A DNA stretch of 63,129 nucleotides, filler included, from Basidioascus undulatus (taxonomy: Eukaryota): assembly GCA_000826855.1 (NCBI GenBank). It is 15 parts of 15 records of this genome, joined end to end, with 100 filler letters (N's around TTAATTAATTAA, not from the genome) between each part and the next. Parts side by side here need not be neighbours in the genome. Positions count along the whole stretch, not along the records: positions 37,845 to 40,587 come from JTLS01002656.1; 14 more parts are not named here. One strand, given 5' to 3'. Under the pieces are notes generated by a model. The model saw only the letters and a list, made by a program, of their open reading frames with translations, had not been told where the DNA came from and did no database searches. Of this stretch, positions 1,756-40,587 are shown piece after piece (position 1 is the first letter of the stretch; every line of letters starts with the position of its first letter). A program made the translations under genes and the position numbers.

Positions 1756-3149
1756 AGTTTTTTTTAGGGGACCTGAAGGACTGGAAGAGCTTTGAAGGAG
1801 GGCATGCAACCATGCTTATTGGGTGCTGCTGACGATGTGCCAGTTGCCCCAATCTAGCCTATGGTCCATTGCGAGTTGGCGAACCTTCACGGAACCGCTA
1901 GTTCCGCCAGCCTAGTCGAGACGCAAGATTTTGAGAGGGGTTTATACCTTTACAATCCAAGGAAGGCGGACACATGCCCCTGGGGACAGTGCGAGCGCAC
2001 CCGGAGCAAAGGTCGGGTTCGAGCAGTCGCTCAGGCAGCGCGGATCGGCAGAGGCTCCATAGGCATGCAGGACGACGCGCGCTCCAGATGCCCGTGGCTC
2101 CAAATTGAGCACGGCGGTTGTGTAACGGAGCGAGCGCTTACCTATGATCGCCCTGATGCGGAGACAGGGTGTCAAAGGGGATTGCTGTGCTGTCTGCGCT
2201 CCTACTCGCGCGTACCAGAGCCGTGTCTAATCGCCTCTTGTCGAGAGTGCGTTGCGATACTGGGATTGGTATTTCTCTTGTGCGGAGGGGGGGATGGGGG
2301 TACGGAGCGAAGCTGTGCGCGGGCCGGTGGACGAGCTGGGTCAAGCGAACAGATCGGTGTTTCAGCATATCAAAATGCTTCGGCGGGCCCTGCTTCGTGC
2401 CCCTTTTGCCCAAATGAAACGAAGAATTCATCAGTCGAAATCCTGAGCATACAGCAAGCATGAGGCCCCCCATTCCGCTGATGAGCGACATAAAGCAGAG
2501 AATGGCTAACATGCAACGTCAAAACGTGGTCCAGCTGCTAAGCGCTGCTGAAAGAGGATTAAAGACGTGCAATCTTGAGCCGCCTCTGCACCCTGTGTCG
2601 GTTTATAGTGTTGCCTGAGAAACATCAGAAGACATAGGAAACTAAAGTACTGTAAGGTGGTCCCTGGACGTGTGTGTAGCTTTATTCGTTCCGGAAGTCA
2701 GCTGTGTTGCCTCTTGGAAGACTCGTTCAATTGCTTCGCTGTAATGCGGTTATACTTTAATAAGGAATTAAACATCACACTTTCAGGCATCCCAACTGGA
2801 ACGCTCTCTTTGAGCGTGGCGCTCGACAATTAGTCGGCGTGGGCTGCGAGCGCAATATCAAGAACCACAGGACTTTCTGGCCCAGAACGGCACAGCTTCA
2901 GTCTGAGCTATAGATGTTTAATGTGTGAATTACGGTGTCCTCGAGAAAGCCCGAACATCGGAACTTGATACTCAGGACTGGCAGTATTGCTGAGACGTGT
3001 AGGCATGGTGCATGAGATAGCCAGACTGCAGTGTTTGACGAGGCGCAGACGTAGCATCGAGGATGACAATGCAACAAATCCTAATTTAAAGACGCAAATG
3101 GCCAAAACCGAAATAAAGCGAAGCAATGAAGGCGTCCCTCCCATTCCCC

Positions 3150-6100
3150 TCACTCCCTCGTTCTTCGTCGATCCCGGTCCCTGCCCTCGGCCTTCCCACC
3201 CTCGAACGCCCCCAAGCGCTTGCTCAGCCGCTCTGCCTTCTCTTTTTCCTTCGGCCCCACCGCGAGCCCGTCTAGGAGTACCAGCGCGGGGCACAGCTTC
3301 GCGAGCAAGCCGCGGTATGCGACACGCTTGACGTAGTACGCGTCTGGCAGAGCGCGGCGGAACTTGGCGTCGAGGCTCGCCCAGTCAGGGGTATCGGAGG
3401 AGGGCAGGGGTGCGGGTGGAGTGGCAGACGTCGAGGTGGTTAGGGCGGAAGGCTTGGCGGGCGAGGGGCGAGGGACGATGAGTTTGTAGGAGGCTGCTGG
3501 TGCGGAGGGAGAAATGATGAGGGGGAGGTAGAGCGCCAGCGTGCACGGGTTCATCCTAAGATCGACCACGTTAGGCACAGCGCAGCGGGAGATATGCGAT
3601 GGAAATGGAATACATACCGCAAGTCCAGCAACTCGAGCTCGTGCATGCCCTTCAGCGCCTTCTCGACGCTCTCGACTCGCTCGAGCCGGTTGCCAACCGC
3701 GCTCAGCCGTCGCAGCCGCTCGAGGCCGGTAAGCGGTCGGAGGTCCTCGACGAAGTTGTAGTTAAGATTGACGACGCGGAGGTTCGGGCACAGCGTTGCG
3801 AGGTTGGCGGGGAGGGCCGACAGGCTACACGACGCGAGCTCGAGGTACTCGAGGTGGTAGCACCGCTCGGCGGGGAATGTGGCGGGAATCGAGTTGCCTA
3901 TGAAGTTGTGGGGATTAACTTAGACTCGGAACGATCGAAGACTTGCGCGACTCACTGGAGAGGTACAGTCGTTTGACGTCGCGAATGTCCTTCAAGCTCA
4001 GCTCGCTGAACAACGGGCGCAATGATCAGCAGCCTGAAGAAAGCCCACCCACGGCAGAAAGAACACGCACAACTTCCCGCCCCCTTGCTCACGCAAGCTC
4101 AGGTTTTCCAGCTTGGTCAACGTGCGCGCGTGGAGGATGCGCGCGAGTCGGTTGTTGTCGGCGTAGAGCGTCCGCACGCCCGGGAAGGCATGTGCGTCGA
4201 GGGTCTGCAGGGCGTTCCGGGAGCAGCGCAGCACGCGGAGGCGGGTGAGAGGGGCCGCAGGCGAAAGGGAGATGAGGGCGTTCTCATCTGTGTAGCAGTT
4301 CACTCAGTCAGTCAACTCCTGAAACAAGGTTGCTGAATAGTGCAGACGAACCGAGGTTGAGCGAGACCAAGTTCTCGAGCATCTCCAGCCCTGCGATCTC
4401 CTCCAGCCCATTCCCAGCGAGCTGCAAGCTCTCCAGTCGCGCCCAGCTCGTGCGCGCGCAGTCGACTCGCGCGATGCGGTTGTTACGCGCGGAGAGTTTG
4501 ACGAGCCCGTCGAGTCGCTCCAGGCCGTCAAGCGACGTCATCCGGTTACCGTCGAGCTTGAGCTCGCGGAGACGTCGAAGGGGGGCAAGTTCTGGAGCGG
4601 CAAGCAGGTCGATCGTCAGTGCAAGCCAAAAAGGACTGAAAAGGGGACAGCGACGTACGAAGGACAGAATCGAGCTGGTTGTGCGAAAGGTCGAGGTGCT
4701 CGAGGTTGAGGAGATGGTTGAACGAGGTGAGGCTTGTCAGGCTGTGGAAAGGTGCGAGGTTAGCCTGAAATCTACTCTGCAATGTCGAGGTGCACCGCGC
4801 ACCGATTCCTCTCGACGCTGAGCGTCCTCAACCCGCGCGGGACGCCCGTCAGCCACTCGAGCCTATTCCCCCCCAGATCCAGGACGTCCAGCTCGTCGCC
4901 CACAAGCTTCTTGAGCCGGACAACCCCGTCGAGGCCCTTATCGCGGAGCGAGAGGCTGGTGAGCCTGTCCCAGAAGGGCTCGAACGGCTCGACGTCCGTG
5001 AGCGCCTTGACGATTGCGTCTGAGTTAACACCGAACGAGCACTGCGTCAGGAACGACGCGTCGCTGTTGGGCGGGCGCGATCGGTAAAGTGTCCGGTCCG
5101 GCGCGGAGGCGTTCCGGAGCGGGCGGGGCGGAGGGGGCGCGGTGATGGTGAGGGAGGTGGAGGTGGTGGAATGTGAGCGGGAGACGGAGGGTGAGGGCGA
5201 GGCGAAGGATAGGGATTCTTCGTGCGTGACGCGGCTGCGGCGGCTGGAGACGGGGTCGAGAGCTGCAGAGATTGTGAGTCAGGGATGAAGCCATACTCGC
5301 GAGAGGCAACTGGCTTACAGAGGTCTTCCACATCCCGGCCAAGCTCGTCCAGCTCTTGAACTATCCGCTTGCTGCGCGCCGACATCATGCTTCTCCCGCC
5401 CGGCGCAGCGGTGCTCTCCGTGATTGTCACCTCCCCATCCCCATCCTCCTCGTCCTCACTTCTCTCGTCCTCGCTAGTACCCCAGCTCGACCACCGCTTC
5501 GCGCCGCCACGCTCCTTGCGGAGGCTCCGCGGACTCGGCGCCTGGAACGAGACCGAGCGACCGGGCGTGGTCGCAACGGGTGTGCTGCCCTGCTTGAGCG
5601 CCGAGCGGGGCGGGACAGGCGGCATGGCCGGGCGGGCGGGCGTGGGCGCGGGCGCGGGCGGAGGAAGCGGTGGGGAAGTCTCGGTGGCGGAATCAACCGC
5701 GGACGCTACGGTAAGGTCGGGTGCCTCCTCTTCCTCCACCTCGTCCGCCTCCTGAAGCTGGGTCGTCCGCTCCTCCTCGACCGGCTCGAGTCCGCCCGTC
5801 GCGCCTCCGCCCGCGCCCTGCTCCTCGTCCCCGAAGCTCTCAATCCCCTCAAACACATCGCGCTCCTCCTCGCCCTCGCCCGGCGCGCCCTCGCCAACCC
5901 AGCGCTTGTGTTCCCAATCGAACCGCATCCCGCCCATGCGCTCGATCCCGCCCCATTCCTCCGGCGCGATGCGCGTCAGGTTCGGGGCGCCCGCGACCTT
6001 CCTCGCCTGCGACGACGAGGTCTGCGAAGAGAGCGTGCCGGACGAGGTGGATGGTATGCGCGTAGAGGGCGGGAGGAGGAGGTGGCGGGCGGGGATGGAA

Positions 6101-7901
6101 GAGGCCGGTAGGGAGGCATGCTCGGAAAGGGGAGGGGAGGGAGAAGGGGAGCGGGAGTGTGAGGCGGTCTGGAACTCGACCGCGGGTGGCGGTGGGGGTG
6201 ATAGAGCGCGTGGTGACGGAGGGGCGAACTGGACCTCGTCTTCGAGGCGCTCGCGCTCAATGGATCGTTCCGCCTCTTCGGCAGCCGCGAAGCGCCGGAG
6301 GAGTTTGCGCGGGCTTTCACGCCAACGCCGAACCTCCTCCTTGACCCGCTCGGCGTCGGGCGTGCCTCCGGGGGCGCCGCCACCGACGACCGCAGGACTC
6401 GACAAGCTGCCCTTGATGCGCGCCATGAAGTCCTCGGCCTGCGCGCGGAATTGCGGCGTCCCGTGCTGGGCACTTTGGGGTGCTCTCGCCGCTGCTGCTT
6501 TGCCCGCGGACTGCTCCTCGATGGGCGTGGACGACGCGGGCTGGAAGGTCGGACCGGGGGACTCCACCGCGGCATCGGAAAGGCGCGACGCGAACGATGC
6601 GCGCTCGGACTCGAATGTCCCCGAGTCACCACCCGCCCGCAGGAGGGCCATGAACCCCGCCGCCTCGCGCACATAGTCCCTCCGTGGCGCCTTCACCTCT
6701 TCCTCCTCTTCGCCTTCACCCCTGTGATCCTCCGGGTCCAGGAGCTCCCCCGGCTCCTCGATCAGCTCCGCCTCTACTTCGTCCTGCGGGCTAAGCCGGA
6801 TGCGTTTGCTGGCCCGGTCCGCGCCCTCGCGCGCCGACTCGTCCGCGCTCGAGCCCTCGCCGATGTCGAGCTCGTCGACAAGCGCATCGAGCGCCGTGCG
6901 CGTCGGCGTGTCGTCTCGCACGAAATGGAAGGTCCTGCCGGGGCTGGTGAGGCCCAGGGGCGGCAGGGGCGAGCGCGGCGGGGGGGGAGAGAAGGTGAAT
7001 TGATAGGAAGGGGATGTGAAAGGGTTTGTGAGGGGTGGTGGGATGAGAGGTGGAGCGGGAGTCGGAAGGGTAGGATGGAGAGGTTTGGACGCGGCGGCGC
7101 GGGGAGTGTGGCTGAGGTGTTGGCTGTTGCGTAATGAAGATGGTACGTGGGATGCTGTGAAAATGGTTTTCATATCAATCTTCTTTGTCATGAAACAAGA
7201 CCGACAGACCTTGGCTGTTGACGGTTCCTGTTGCCCGTGGTCGACTGAGGGCACTGGGATAACGTTTCGGTGAGGCTGACAAAATCTCCAATTCATCAGC
7301 AAAGCGAAGGTCCCAGCTTGCAACAAAAATAATGCGCACTTCGTGAGGGAGACGGCGGCAGAGGTGCTGATGGTGGTCGAGCGGAGGAAATAGCCGAAAG
7401 ATCGATGAGCGGAGCGGAGGTGCGACGAGAAGCGGTCAGGCGGAGTGAAGGTGCGTCTGTGAAGATGTACTCGCTGAGCTCAGCTGCCTAGCTACCAGAC
7501 GATGGAAGAGCGTACCACGCTTTCCCATGCTCCCACCCTTCTGCGATCCAATTCCTGACAGCCACAACCGCCCGTCGTTCTCCGGCGCGCGCTGAACGCT
7601 CGTCGCACGTTCTGCCCTCCTCCGCGTCAACCACCGTCATCCTCCGCGCCTCGCTCCAGCCCAGCAACGTACGAGGTTGTTGGAACATGCTTTCTAGCGC
7701 TAGGGGCGCAAAGAAATCGCGCCCTTTGCTGGGTGGGACGAAGCCACCTCGATTGGGGACCGAGTTGTGCACGAGGATGGACCCGACCGCGTTGCCGGAC
7801 GCTGTACGAGCATGGCTGGTGTCGCCGGGCTCGTCATTGAGGATGTCCTGAGCGGAGACCTCCTCCGGCCATTCTGTTGAGAGCTCGTCACCCCAATCCA
7901 T
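3150..7901 (-). CDS. Cdc11/Nud1-like spindle-pole-body septation/mitotic-exit scaffold with C-terminal leucine-rich repeats (multi-exon)
   Basis: N-terminus MDWGDELSTEW..FFAPLALESMFQ, a long disordered exon with GGMRFDWEHKRWVG, then SDS22-like LRR exons (LEHLDLSHNQL, SLDGLERLDGLVKLSARNNRI, LVSLNL, VRTLYADNNRL) and the LRR cap YRGLLAKLCPALVLLDG. Confidence 0.75.
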
Positions 7902-20387: not shown

Positions 20388-21078
20388 ACGTGACTTTGGT
20401 GGATTTCGAGGCATAGTGCGTGCTTTGTCGGTGAGGCAATGTTTGTTGCCAGTGTGCACTTCAGTCGCTGCGACCGCCCCGCTGCACTGTGAAAAGTGTG
20501 ACGCTGACTCCACGTCTCGCGTGACGTGCAAGCCAAAGGCAGCGCTTTCTGTGACATATGCTGGAAATGAGGATAAGCGAACGGTCAGAAAATGCGGAGA
20601 GCAGGGATTTGTGCTGAAGAGTCGCTTGCACTGTACTGTCCTTCGAGAGACACCTCAACTGTAGTTAACAGGGGTCTTCAAAGACCGTCCGCGACCGCAC
20701 GGCCGATATTGAAGCCATCATTTGTAAAGAAAAAAAAGGCCTCGATCGCCCTGACTTGCAATTTCAAGACCAGAAACGAAAAATAAATGGTTCTTCCGTG
20801 GATTGAACACGGTACCTTCAGGACTTCAATCTGACGCTCTCCCAAATGAGCTAAAGAACCCTTGAGACCTTTGCCCATTTAGAAAACTACCACACAACTA
20901 TAAAGAGCACCCCGAGCGCGTTAAGCGCCTAACTGCAGCGTTGCTCCAGAGCTGAACGCACGGCAAGTATGCCGCCCTGTGCACAAGTGCGGTTGCGTGA
21001 AAGCGATCGTATTTCCTTGCGATGTCTAAACTACATTGAGAACGCAGCAAGCATTTCAGGGTATGCATCTGCAGGTGT

Positions 21079-36366: not shown

Positions 36367-37844
36367 GGTGACGGAAGGACGGGGGGTGATTGGGGGTTGA
36401 AAGCAAGGAACGGACGGAAAGGACGATCGACGCCTGATGTGAAGGGAAGGACGAACGCAGAAAGTAAGGAAAGGAGGAGGAAGAAGGTGGGATCATCTCA
36501 TCGTATAAAGGAGCCGCTCGCTCATCCGTCTCCTTCCTGCGTCGTTCCTTCCCCTGACCAAGGGCATGCGGCACGTTCGCCTCGCGACTGGGCAGTCATT
36601 TGCAAAGTAAGCAAAAGTCCCCCTTGGCGCGGCGAGTGGGCCAGGAACGAGCACGTTCGGGCTGGTTTGCTGCACCCTGAGCGCATAAGCCAGGCACAGC
36701 AGGATGAGTACGGAAGCCCGAGCCTCAGAGCAAGAGTCGTTCCTAATTTTGGACCGGTAGACCTAATTTTGGGCCGGAAGACCGGGCCGCGCAAAAGCTT
36801 GCAAGGGGTCTCTCTCTCTCCATGCGTACTGTATCGTCTGTATCCACGTTCCCATCCTCCCTTGACGCTGTAAAGAGAATTGAGCGGTGTGCTAGGGAAG
36901 GCGGGCAGCAACTTGGGTCAGTGACAGTCGTCATCAGAACAACTGAGCCTGCCTCGGCCATGCGGGGCAAACAGATGAACATGCCCAGCTCAGTATTACC
37001 ACAAGCAGGTTTATCACGGCCAGAAATGAAGAAAGGGAAGAGGGGAAGGACTATCCAAGCCCAGTCGCAATGAAGGTGGTCACATCGCTCCTGAGATCTT
37101 GAAGCATCCGAATCCGCAGGTCTGCCTGTCTTCCTGATAACTTTCCTGACAACTTGTGAGATGAGCCAGTGTACACGGGATCCTGGCCATCAAAGAGGCC
37201 TTCCGGCAGGGAATTGGAACCTGTTTACCCTTTCCACAGAGTCCCCCATGTCGTCCAATGCCCATCTCTCCAACATCTTCCTAAGAGCCTCTCCAACAGC
37301 CGCCCACCTCTCCCCTGTCTATACGGAATCAAACCGACTCACCCTAGTGTACCATCCCACCCCCCATAGGCTGCCTTGTTCGAAGCGGTTCTGCTATTGC
37401 AAAGAAAGACGAGAACAAAAGGGTGACCCCCAAGTGAGGGTCGAATTAAGAACGGAAGAGGCGCCAGCACCTGTCTCGAAGTTCAAGGATTGTTTTTCAG
37501 CCCGATCTGGTCAAAAGGCAGGTCAGAAAGTATGTGAAGGCGCGCTAATGCCTGTTTCTGGGACAGGCTTTGCAGCCCAGAAACAAAGGTCAGAAATGAT
37601 GGGGAAGGGGCACCAATACCTCTTCTCTACAGAGAGGAAGGTGGAAGTCTCAAAAGAACTCTAGCCTTCCGAGTATAACACAGGAAACCAAGGACCTCTC
37701 GAGTCTAGTGCAGGAAACCGAAACTTAGGACCTCCCCCCCCCCCNNNNNNNNNNNNNNNNNNNNNNNNNNNNNNNNNNNNNNNNNNNNTTAATTAATTAA
37801 NNNNNNNNNNNNNNNNNNNNNNNNNNNNNNNNNNNNNNNNNNNN

Positions 37845-37913
37845 AGTCAGATACTCTACCATTGAGCCAGCCGGCCATGACCGACGCAGGGATCGAACCT
37901 GCAACCCCCTGAT
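37845..37913 (-). tRNA. tRNA(Trp)-like halves in permuted order (3' half 37913-37878, then 5' half 37876-37845); anticodon lies beyond the contig end
   Basis: Minus strand reads ATCAGG GGGTT GCAGG TTCGATC CCTGC GTCGGTC A, then T, then GGCCGGC TG GCTC AATGGTA GAGT A TCTGA CT. Acceptor (GGCCGGC/GTCGGTC), D, anticodon (TCTGA/TCAGG) and T stems all pair. Trp identity is inferred from resemblance to fungal tRNA-Trp. Confidence 0.7.
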
Positions 37914-39643
37914 CTCGACTCCCACTTGCTTACGCTTGCGGTGACAATGCTTCAACAATCAAAACACACGTCCATTAATAAAACAATGTTGTCAAGCACC
38001 TGTTCCTTCCGCTGTATATTTTAAAGAAGCCCACTTCTAAAGTCAAACGCAGTTTTTGAATGGATTTTCTTAAGACAGCGAAGGTAGCGAATTAAAAGCA
38101 ACACCGGCAACTTACACAGATCGATGCAATCTCCACTCGAGCCCTGCCGGGCCTCGAGAAATGGGTTTGGACTACTTAAGTAGTAGTGAGAAGGGATAAA
38201 TATTGTACCGAATATGGATTACTGTGTGCGATTGTTCTCGTCCAAGGACATTAGTTTGAAGCCTGACCATTTCTTCCCGCATTCATACGGCCAACTCGAT
38301 CGGAGGTTGAGGTCAATCGAGAAGAAGACAGAGCACAACTGGGCGGAGTTGGTGAAGCTATCTAGATGTAATATCTTGAAATTTTTAATACACACTCAAG
38401 TAACCGAATTCTCAGTGATAGAGAATGCCAATTTGAGCAGTAGCAGTGTACAGCCTCGTGCACTTCTGGCTTTTCCAGGGCTCGGAAGGCCTGCTGTCAC
38501 TTACGATGATAAACCTGACTCCTATCCTTTTATTTCCATTACTATTGCTTTATTTCGACTTAAATGAAAACTTTCAGTCTCGGAGGATCTTCTATTTCTT
38601 GACAGACTTGCTGTCTGTGTGGGTTAACTGCAACCCCGCGACAGGTGCCTGCCAGAACCTCACGGCCTTGGTTGGCTCGGCGCTTCTTAGAAAACGGAAG
38701 TGGGACAATGTCATAGGAAACAAATGGAGATATGCACTACCCTAGTTTAAAGCCTCCAGAACCGCGCGGCGGACAGCAGCTGAGGTTCTGTCACACTGCA
38801 TGCAGGGCACAAACAAATTGCACGAGTGCGTTGCCGGCATTCAAGATCCATGGAAGCTTTCACGCAGTGGTCAAAAACATTCTAAACCCACTGTATGGCT
38901 TGACCCCACTGTTAAGACTGCCGAATTCGGTTCCACAGCTCTTTACCGAGGCGGTACCGCAGCTGCACATCCCGGTCACGACGCCAGACACCATCGGAAT
39001 CAAATCTCTTCAGTCTTCCTTCTCCCCATCATCTACGAGTTTTGTCCAAGATGACATCCACGACTTCATCATCACGTGCCGCTTCAGCCTCACCGTCGCT
39101 GCCGCGTCAATTATGATGCTCATCTTCGGGATCCTCTGGCTCATCCGTCCGTTGCCCACTGCAACCCCTCTGCAATCCTTACATCCGTGCCCGCTCAAGG
39201 CAGCATACGACCGCTTTTCCAAGACGCAACGAAGCGGGAGGAGCACTCCTCATGTCTTCAGTGTCCTGTCGCCCAGTTGCGTACTGCCCACTGCGGCCGC
39301 TGTCCTCCCCACGGAACTGAGACGGATCACTCACATTGGAGGGATATGCGCCGGGCATTAGTCTTGATCTACCTCATAGCATGGTGTACAGATACGTGGT
39401 GACAGACGAGACGTTGTGCACATGGCAGGGCTGTGAAATCCATGAATTGTCCTAACTGCATGCGACGACTCAGCTGCGTTTTAGATGGAATATGGATCGA
39501 GATTTGTGGAGTGAAGGCAAGGCAATCCGAAGAAGCGAATTGTAAACCTAAGGAAGGGCTGGTGAGCGCGCGAAGGTCGAGGTGAGGGTCAGCGACAGTC
39601 CCTGATATGCGTCAGAAAATGCGATGCAATACGTCTCTCTCCA

Positions 39644-40587
39644 TCAAGTACTCCTCCCTGCTAGATCCACGCTCTCCTGCTCCGCAAGCGCCATGAACTC
39701 CTCCCACGCCTCCTTATCCATCCCATACGCCTCCTTCTCCGCAGGGAACGCCCCTTCCCTCACGTCCCTCGCCCAGCTGCCCATGGCCTCCCTGCCCTCC
39801 TTCGCCCACTCCGCATACCGCCTCACAAACTTGGGCTTGAAGGCATCGTACAGCCCCAGCAAATCCGCCTGGACGAGGACCTGCCCCGCGGTGCCTGGGC
39901 CGGCCCCAATCCCAATCGAGGGGACGTCCAGGCGCTCGGTGATGTACGCCCCGAGCGGGGTCGGAATCGCCTCTAGGACGACTGCGAATGCGCCCGCGTG
40001 CTGGATCGCCAGCGCGTCGTGCAGGATGGCCAGCGCCGCGGCCGGCGAGCGCCCCTGGACCTTGAACCCGGAGAGGAGGGTCGCGCGCTGGGGGAGGAGC
40101 CCGACGTGGCCCATGACGGGCACGCCGGCCTCGACGATCCGCCGCACGGTCTCCGCGATCTCGCACCCGCCCTCGAGCTTCACGCCGTCCACGCCCCCCT
40201 CGCGCACGAGCCGCACCGCGCTCCGCACCGCCTCGTCCGCGCCGCAGTGGTACGTCCCGAAGGGCAGGTCCGCCACGACGAAGGGCGTCTTGGCGCCCCG
40301 CATGACAGCCCGGCAGTGGTGGATCATCTCGTCTAGCGTGAGGGACGTCGTGGACGCGTGCCCTAGGCACGTGAGCGCCAGCGAGTCGCCCACGAGCGTG
40401 ATGTCGATGCCGGGGGTGGGAGGGGAGTGGTGCGTGGACTCGATGAGGTTGGAGGTCGGGTAGTCGTACGCGGTTAGGCAGGTGATGGGCGTGCGGGATC
40501 GGTGAAGGGCGTGAAGGGAGGCGATGGTGCGCTTTTTGGGTGGGGAGGGCGCTGGGGGGAAGGGGCTGTGTGAGCGTGCTAAGGACA
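39644..40587 (-). CDS. ECM31: 3-methyl-2-oxobutanoate hydroxymethyltransferase (PanB), 5' truncated
   Basis: ITCLTAYDYP, LVGDSLA, TLDEMIHHCRAVMRGA, VADLPFG, GVKLEGG, VMGHVGLLPQ, GFKVQGR, IGIGAG..GQVLV and PKFVRRY. No intron in the visible part. Confidence 0.95.

Follow-up and report, generated by a model that had tools for sequence, protein, structure and literature searches.

Two tRNA halves at a contig edge

The DNA analysed here is a window of 63,129 nt (the whole stretch, linkers included) from Basidioascus undulatus. The feature under study lies at the low end of a contig of 2743 nt (37845-40587). Reading along the minus strand, this contig presents a PanB exon, AT-rich tracts, a candidate tRNA intron end, the 3' half of a tRNA, one T and the 5' half of a tRNA, after which comes a linker (Table 1). 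The best named relatives of PanB (ketopantoate hydroxymethyltransferase) are all fungal, mostly from Basidiomycota, with at most 62% identity, and they support the statement of the initial annotation that the host is a fungus. No close sequenced relative was among these hits, and a protein atlas returned mixed taxa for PanB, of no use in placing the host. The interval of about 1.7 kb between PanB and the element (37950-39640) holds ORFs of 78 to 209 aa, and an ORF of 279 aa lies over PanB on the opposite strand, with no Pfam match at E up to 0.1. No transposon protein was found beside the repeat: the seven ORFs between the element and PanB matched zero Pfam families at E up to 0.1.

The window consists of 15 contigs (one of 23.5 kb and 14 of 2.7 to 2.76 kb in falling length) separated by 14 linkers of the same form. 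GC content differs between contigs, from 0.50 to 0.675. A run of 11 C closes the neighbouring contig (37733-37744), and several other contig ends are G- or C-rich and of low complexity, which suggests assembly breaks at homopolymers and not biology.

Table 1. Features at the locus and elsewhere in the window, with positions counted along the whole window.
Feature	Positions	Strand	Remarks
Assembly linker, N44-TTAATTAATTAA-N44	37745..37844	.	Non-biological; marks the contig end
tRNA 5' half, G1-U33	37845..37876	-	32 nt; ended by the contig edge
Single T spacer between discriminator A73 and G1	37877	-	Sequence reading
tRNA 3' half, positions 38-73	37878..37913	-	36 nt; all stems pair; inside the high-depth block
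Leader, candidate tRNA intron 3' end, ending in GGGAGTCGAG	37914..37947	-	Common to other family copies
AT-rich, TATA-like tracts	37973..38023	-	By eye; 60-110 nt upstream of the 3' half
PanB exon	39644..40393	-	PF02548, E 9.1e-89; about 1.7 kb upstream, same strand
tRNA-Phe(GAA), intron-less, ordinary	20788..20860	-	ARAGORN and Rfam; only standard tRNA gene found in the window

The 3' half is made of the anticodon-stem 3' strand, a variable loop (GGGTT), the T arm, the acceptor 3' strand and the discriminator A, and CCA is not encoded after A73. The 5' half comprises the acceptor 5' strand, the D arm, the anticodon-stem 5' strand, C32 and U33; it stops at U33 because the contig ends there and the linker begins. 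The order on the minus strand (3' half, T, 5' half) is that of a permuted tRNA gene. The initial annotation had read the locus as a 3' half, one T and a matching 5' half that runs off the contig, and both the sequence and a pairing script confirm this layout. The four stems that it described do pair: acceptor stem 7/7 (two G-U), D stem 4/4 (one G-U), anticodon stem 5/5 (one G-U) and T stem 5/5. The T loop is TTCGATC and the D loop is AATGGTA. Anticodon positions 34-37 lie off the contig, and the cloverleaf was rebuilt with N in the anticodon loop only. When the halves were joined in the script with NNNN filling the missing loop letters, ARAGORN reported a tRNA of unknown anticodon. As a chance control, full 7-bp plus 5-bp pairing was obtained in 2 of 200,000 random draws within the contig. 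Rfam aligned the 5' half to positions 1-32 of the tRNA model with 17.8 bits, the alignment being cut off at the 3' side by the edge. ARAGORN (with and without intron mode) and Rfam at the gathering threshold gave no match at the locus itself and yielded only the tRNA-Phe(GAA) gene in the window.

Short-word blastn of 37845-37960 against the whole window detected no second 5' half on the contig and nothing longer than 13 nt elsewhere, which bears out the earlier observation that the 2.6 kb upstream contains no 5' half. By blastn against all 15 contigs, no other copy of the element is present in the window. One account of the break at U33, based on k=33 and a repeat starting at G1, was set aside; it depends on the assembler.

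Before the 3' half the leader has the terminal letters GTGGGAGTCGAG (minus strand). The G at its third-last position can pair with C32, in agreement with the initial annotation, and GAGTC is complementary to G30-C34 if position 34 is C. The annotation had further matched GGAGTC with GACTCC and so with a CCA anticodon. The GACT part is visible and stands; CCA is not singled out, as an extra G in the leader (GGGAGTC) fits CCC equally well. Since only GACT of the proposed GACTCC partner can be seen, we infer the anticodon rather than read it, and the tryptophan assignment is weaker than the layout. The tRNA body at the locus presumably resembles eukaryotic tRNA-Trp. Both the leader end and the AT-rich tracts at about 60 to 110 nt upstream are present in the sequence as had been annotated.

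Copies of the segment in public sequence data

Logan contigs of four public runs (X1 to X4) were aligned on 37845-38600, and the individual records described below come from the 22 of 104 aligned pieces that were listed. X1 and X3 are from one sample, X2 is from another study (2014) and X4 is a soil metagenome, giving three samples from three studies; none of these four listed runs is an RNA run. X1 and X2 are probably from the same strain because both have a contig of 17,080 nt, and the two together therefore give no independent support for the family. The X4 soil run contains 151-nt contigs that are 95 to 99% alike to the unique flank (37999-38370) and to the repeat. The likeness to the unique flank indicates that the same or a close species occurs in that soil at low depth.

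The junction at 37876-37878 is spanned without gaps and with one to five differences in 10 of the listed records (11 pieces). Four of them are from X1/X3, four from X2 and one from X4, and the tenth is a second record of X3; contigs of 18.5 kb and 50.7 kb are included. The length of the spacer, 1 nt, is the same in every other copy listed. The check proposed in the initial annotation, a search for data across these three positions, thus found gap-free sequence in contigs of three studies. A chimeric join made by the assembler inside a repeated tRNA gene might have been suspected from the position of the feature at a contig edge in a fragmented assembly, and the own-locus Logan contigs of X1 and X2 both stop at 37897, short of the junction. 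They stop there because the words beyond are common to other copies. The 10 gap-free records, drawn from all four runs, make an assembly chimera so improbable that we give it hardly any weight.

Depth over the tRNA halves is far above that of the flank. Summed contig depth over 37845-37922 is 5745 to 7400 in X1, compared to 51.1 in the unique flank, and 1918 to 3453 in X2, compared to 19.2. The ratio is about 100 to 180 at 37845-37922, about 12 to 15 at 37923-37948 and 1 beyond; summed depth is not a copy number and the ratio is used as an index only. A 56-nt contig across the junction has about nine times the flank depth (472.7 in X1 and 175.4 in X2). In each of X1 and X2, 49 contigs match the segment. 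Those with a non-fitting part number 9 in X1 and 15 in X2, six in each run extend over the ends of the stretch, and 34 and 28, respectively, are short contigs wholly internal to the repeat. Many units with few boundaries fit arrays.

The listed pieces also include long contigs of single-copy depth (17 to 51 kb in X1), each of which ends in a copy with three to five differences. One copy begins only at G43 (records 2 and 10), and in some copies 57-72 nt contain five differences. In records 1 and 9, which represent at least one copy, the contig does not stop at U33 but continues for 18.5 kb or 4.2 kb. The segment at 37845-37922 forms a family of high copy index, whose members include diverged and truncated copies as well as copies with internal deletions.

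Similarity to other copies continues into the leader. The word length of Logan contigs is 31, and by our own arithmetic with k=31 the exact sharing of 31-mers with other copies begins at 37926. Matches of at least 90% likeness reach 37945-37947 in some copies; among the listed pieces (22 of 104), records 6, 8, 13, 14 and 16 match up to 37932-37947. In hand alignments of the minus strand, the loose ends at 37926, 37932, 37933 and 37938 resemble the locus leader with substitutions and small indels. By these alignments, about a dozen copies carry family sequence for some 35 to 50 nt beyond the 3' half on its upstream side.

Two junctions in one molecule were found in record 18 of X3, a contig of 93 nt with a depth of 32.7 in a low-coverage run. 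On one strand its nt 1-30 map to 37885-37856 and its nt 31-93 map to 37918-37856. The order is the end of a 3' half, T, nt 1-21 of a 5' half, TCGAG, a whole 3' half, T, and again nt 1-21 of a 5' half, so that two A73-T-G1 junctions lie 63 nt apart. The 63-nt variant unit has its 5' half cut at nt 21 and is devoid of the anticodon arm; a longer unit, perhaps of about 84 nt, may exist beside it. The first and last 30 letters of the record are identical and 93 equals 63 + 30; with a word length of 31 the record looks like a cycle in the assembly graph. A soil contig of X4, with two differences over 37845-37920, has a minus-strand loose end with the same GGTAG/TCGAG joint. This joint can be explained by a putative deletion between two similar words, TGGTAGAG in the D arm and TGGGAGTCGAG at the intron end. 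Such a deletion would require a 5' half upstream of an intron end in one molecule. Taken together, record 18 and the X4 joint indicate that head-to-tail units, some of them lacking the anticodon arm, exist at high depth. The presence of two or more units in one molecule, as in a tandem array or satellite, is thus seen for the family through record 18 of X3; the locus itself displays one junction only.

Explanations for the permuted order

Our preferred explanation, held with moderate confidence, is that the locus is the boundary of a multi-copy head-to-tail repeat family that arose from a tryptophan-type, intron-containing tRNA gene. Unique DNA would pass into a unit truncated within its intron-like sequence (about 37947-37914) and then into the 3' half of that unit. 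The next unit would open with its 5' half after one T, and the assembly would have broken there because the sequence of the 5' half is repeated elsewhere. Any head-to-tail series places the 5' half of one unit directly after the 3' half of the unit before it, and this gives a permuted look that needs no dedicated permuted gene. The locus presumably continues with one or more further units; it is possible that one, many or none follow. Outside the depth data, the repeat boundary is supported by the lack of a 5' exon upstream on the contig and by the leader, which ends like a tRNA intron. Other points speak against it. Much of the depth could arise without arrays if one copy sat within a high-copy unit such as rDNA, and an old decayed repeat would not be expected to keep an intact tRNA body like that of the locus.

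The junction coincides exactly with the sites where RNase P and RNase Z cleave, intron-like sequence is attached and CCA is absent. These three features suggest that a processed pre-tRNA was copied into DNA, and we infer an origin at the RNA level followed by amplification. A reverse transcriptase that had reached the 5' end of one end-processed pre-tRNA may have jumped to the 3' end of a second such molecule, or a circularised pre-tRNA may have been reverse transcribed. In yeast, CCA is added before splicing. If the same order applied here, the CCA-less junction would fit an end-processed pre-tRNA template poorly. The two routes match scenarios B and C, which section 10 of a review discusses for how permuted tRNA genes arose (PMC3978253).

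Of the two readings of the locus in the initial annotation, one was a permuted gene that functions and the other a head-to-tail duplication templated by RNA. The second fits better and is here widened to a multi-copy family, because a dedicated permuted gene would not be expected to show such a copy index, copies that are diverged, truncated or deleted, or tandem junctions; the first is not supported. If the locus were a true circularly permuted tRNA-Trp gene, or one of a few such genes, it would be transcribed from the AT-rich upstream region. Splicing at a leader-trailer motif would give a circle, which RNase P and tRNase Z would open with removal of the single U, and CCA would then be added. 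The two halves do pair in all four stems of a cloverleaf (the anticodon letters being off the contig), AT-rich tracts that look TATA-like by eye lie upstream, and the leader ends like an intron, with its -3 G opposite C32 and with GAGTC opposite G30-C34 if position 34 is C. The 1-nt spacing is also kept without gaps in all 10 listed records. The initial annotation noted as a caveat that the 1-nt spacer is shorter than in other cases. This caveat does not count against permutation: in the text of the review available, the sequence between A73 and G1 in permuted genes ranges from 1 to 74 bp, and a 1-nt intervening sequence occurs in tRNA-Tyr of Thermofilum pendens (PMC3978253). Among the junction types of green algae, moreover, type II (37/38) is the most frequent (PMC3978253). 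On the other side stands the depth index of about 100 to 180, far over any plausible number of Trp genes. Fungi typically have fewer than 10 tRNA-Trp genes. The copies that differ by 5 in 57-72 nt, the one truncated at G43 and the high-depth variant without the anticodon arm are likewise not what an intact, low-copy gene would give, and the trailer, anticodon and terminator lie off the visible sequence. None of the titles listed from the literature on permuted tRNA and fungi reports a fungal case. The accessible text of the review gives none for Opisthokonta or fungi, the latter appearing there only in a remark on the TATA box (PMC3978253). We regard a permuted gene as a distinctly improbable reading of the locus.

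Somewhat better placed, though still unlikely, is a dispersed SINE-like retroposon with one permuted module per copy (leader, 3' half, T, 5' half and tail), spread by a LINE enzyme with variable 5' truncation and without tandem arrays. Several long single-copy-depth contigs each end in one copy, the upstream break points vary (37908, 37920, 37926, 37932-37938 and 37945) as 5' truncation would have them do, and at least one copy, that of records 1 and 9, runs beyond U33 into long contig sequence. However, several of the break points are really divergence, as the loose ends at 37926-37938 align by hand to the locus leader. Flanks occur on only 9 to 15 of 49 contigs against a depth index of 100 to 180, and the tandem arrangement in record 18 of X3 fits a dispersed element poorly. 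The visible part also has the B box (T arm) ahead of the A box (D arm), the reverse of a tRNA-derived SINE, and the module is therefore not a normal Pol III SINE head.

Another permuted arrangement of T arm, capped acceptor stem and D arm is that of the tRNA-like domain of bacterial YrlA RNA, and the locus might encode a non-decoding RNA of this kind. In cmscan, 37845-37932 (minus strand) aligned to positions 1-89 of YrlA (RF02553) with 34.2 bits and E 5.1e-05. The 63-nt variant without an anticodon arm would suit such an RNA, and in the minimum-energy fold the T and D hairpins are accompanied by an acceptor hairpin of 6 bp that is closed by a CAUG loop. However, 34.2 bits falls short of the gathering threshold (69), and there was no hit in the scan at that threshold. 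The match rests on generic T-arm and D-arm consensus only, YrlA is a bacterial RNA that binds Rsr/Ro60, and the fold is no better than those of shuffled sequences (z -0.38). We consider this reading very improbable. The YrlA model pulls in any sequence with the order T arm, acceptor, D arm.

Some further candidates were tried and rejected. The junction letters CA/TG could be taken for an LTR next to a primer binding site (PBS); the complement of CCA is missing, no polypurine tract (PPT) adjoins, and the upstream side of TG is conserved from copy to copy and is not target DNA. In metagenomes, the pattern of a T arm, 14 to 24 nt and a D arm was found at seven loci. Each of the seven consists of normal tRNA genes of bacterial type that differ from one another and lie close together, and matching halves occur at none. 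The exact 26-nt junction word had zero matches in prokaryote genome contigs and zero in viral contigs.

Comparison with known systems and significance

Permuted tRNA genes are known from Cyanidioschyzon merolae, prasinophytes, the Bigelowiella nucleomorph and Thermofilum pendens. The available text of the review agrees in this with the list of organisms in the initial annotation, and in these genes, as at the locus, the 3' half comes first on the same strand (PMC3978253). The break at 37/38 (type II), the short A73-G1 spacer and the lack of an encoded CCA are also shared, and the AT-rich tracts upstream look TATA-like by eye. As the same source describes them, permuted genes are single and intact, are needed for decoding, and have a T stretch as well as a splice motif formed by leader and trailer (PMC3978253). 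In contrast, the locus belongs to a family of high copy index in which copies are decayed, truncated or deleted and a tandem arrangement occurs. To account for permuted genes, section 10 of the review considers either co-transcribed tandem intron-containing tRNA genes or a circularised pre-tRNA that is reverse transcribed (PMC3978253). These scenarios need head-to-tail intron-containing units joined at or near the mature ends, as in the family described here. They are presented there as hypotheses for algae and archaea (PMC3978253), whereas the arrangement described here is known at the level of fungal DNA.

Among basidiomycetes, a comparison can be made with the Helenus elements, which are miniature retrotransposons with terminal repeats (TRIMs). 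These are non-autonomous LTR retrotransposons with tRNA-like sequence in the LTR, and are described from Pucciniales and some Agaricomycetes in the available text of their report (PMC10886601). Like the present family, they supply basidiomycete genomes with numerous tRNA-like sequences, most of which are unlikely to encode working tRNAs. The Helenus sequences have the normal order of A box to B box inside TG...CA repeats, with a PBS and a PPT (PMC10886601). The order at the locus is permuted, and neither PBS nor PPT abuts the junction CA/TG. In the Helenus supplement, the 14-nt D-arm word of the locus occurs four times, and the two occurrences displayed are in rust LTRs of ordinary order. The T-arm word occurs zero times in the supplement, and no junction of a 3' half to a 5' half is described in the available text (PMC10886601).

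Head-to-tail amplification of tRNA genes, or of elements derived from them, is the property that the family shares with tandem tRNA arrays and SINE-derived satellites. Entamoeba has tandem arrays of tRNA genes. Known arrays are made of whole genes with their own terminators and with spacers of tens to hundreds of bases, whereas a single base separates the units of the present family, and its 63-nt variant has no anticodon arm. The Ser/Tyr cluster of Arabidopsis is reported as a tandem tRNA gene array (PMC12308677, as far as its available text goes), and SINE-derived satellites are known as well (PMC10702118, likewise in part). A head-to-tail tRNA repeat joined at mature ends was not found for any fungus in the titles and opening lines of abstracts of a literature that consisted mostly of journals other than subscription journals.

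It is conceivable, at long odds, that transcripts crossing the junction are true permuted pre-tRNAs, which would become circles through the splicing endonuclease and ligase and finally a working tRNA-Trp. If so, no permuted tRNA would have been known before beyond algae and archaea, and the family would show in a living organism the intermediate, tandem or circular RNA, from which permuted genes have been proposed to arise.

For the head-to-tail repeat family that we favour, the meaning lies in the units themselves. Units joined exactly at the RNase P and RNase Z cuts, with intron-like sequence kept, have the signature that would be expected if processed pre-tRNA had been copied back into DNA, by template jumping or from a circular pre-tRNA, and in the published scenarios they are the raw material from which permuted tRNA genes arise. 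Where permuted-looking tRNA halves are met at contig edges, their copy number should be checked before they are called genes. Repeats of this kind can inflate or confuse the counts of tRNA genes in fungal assemblies.
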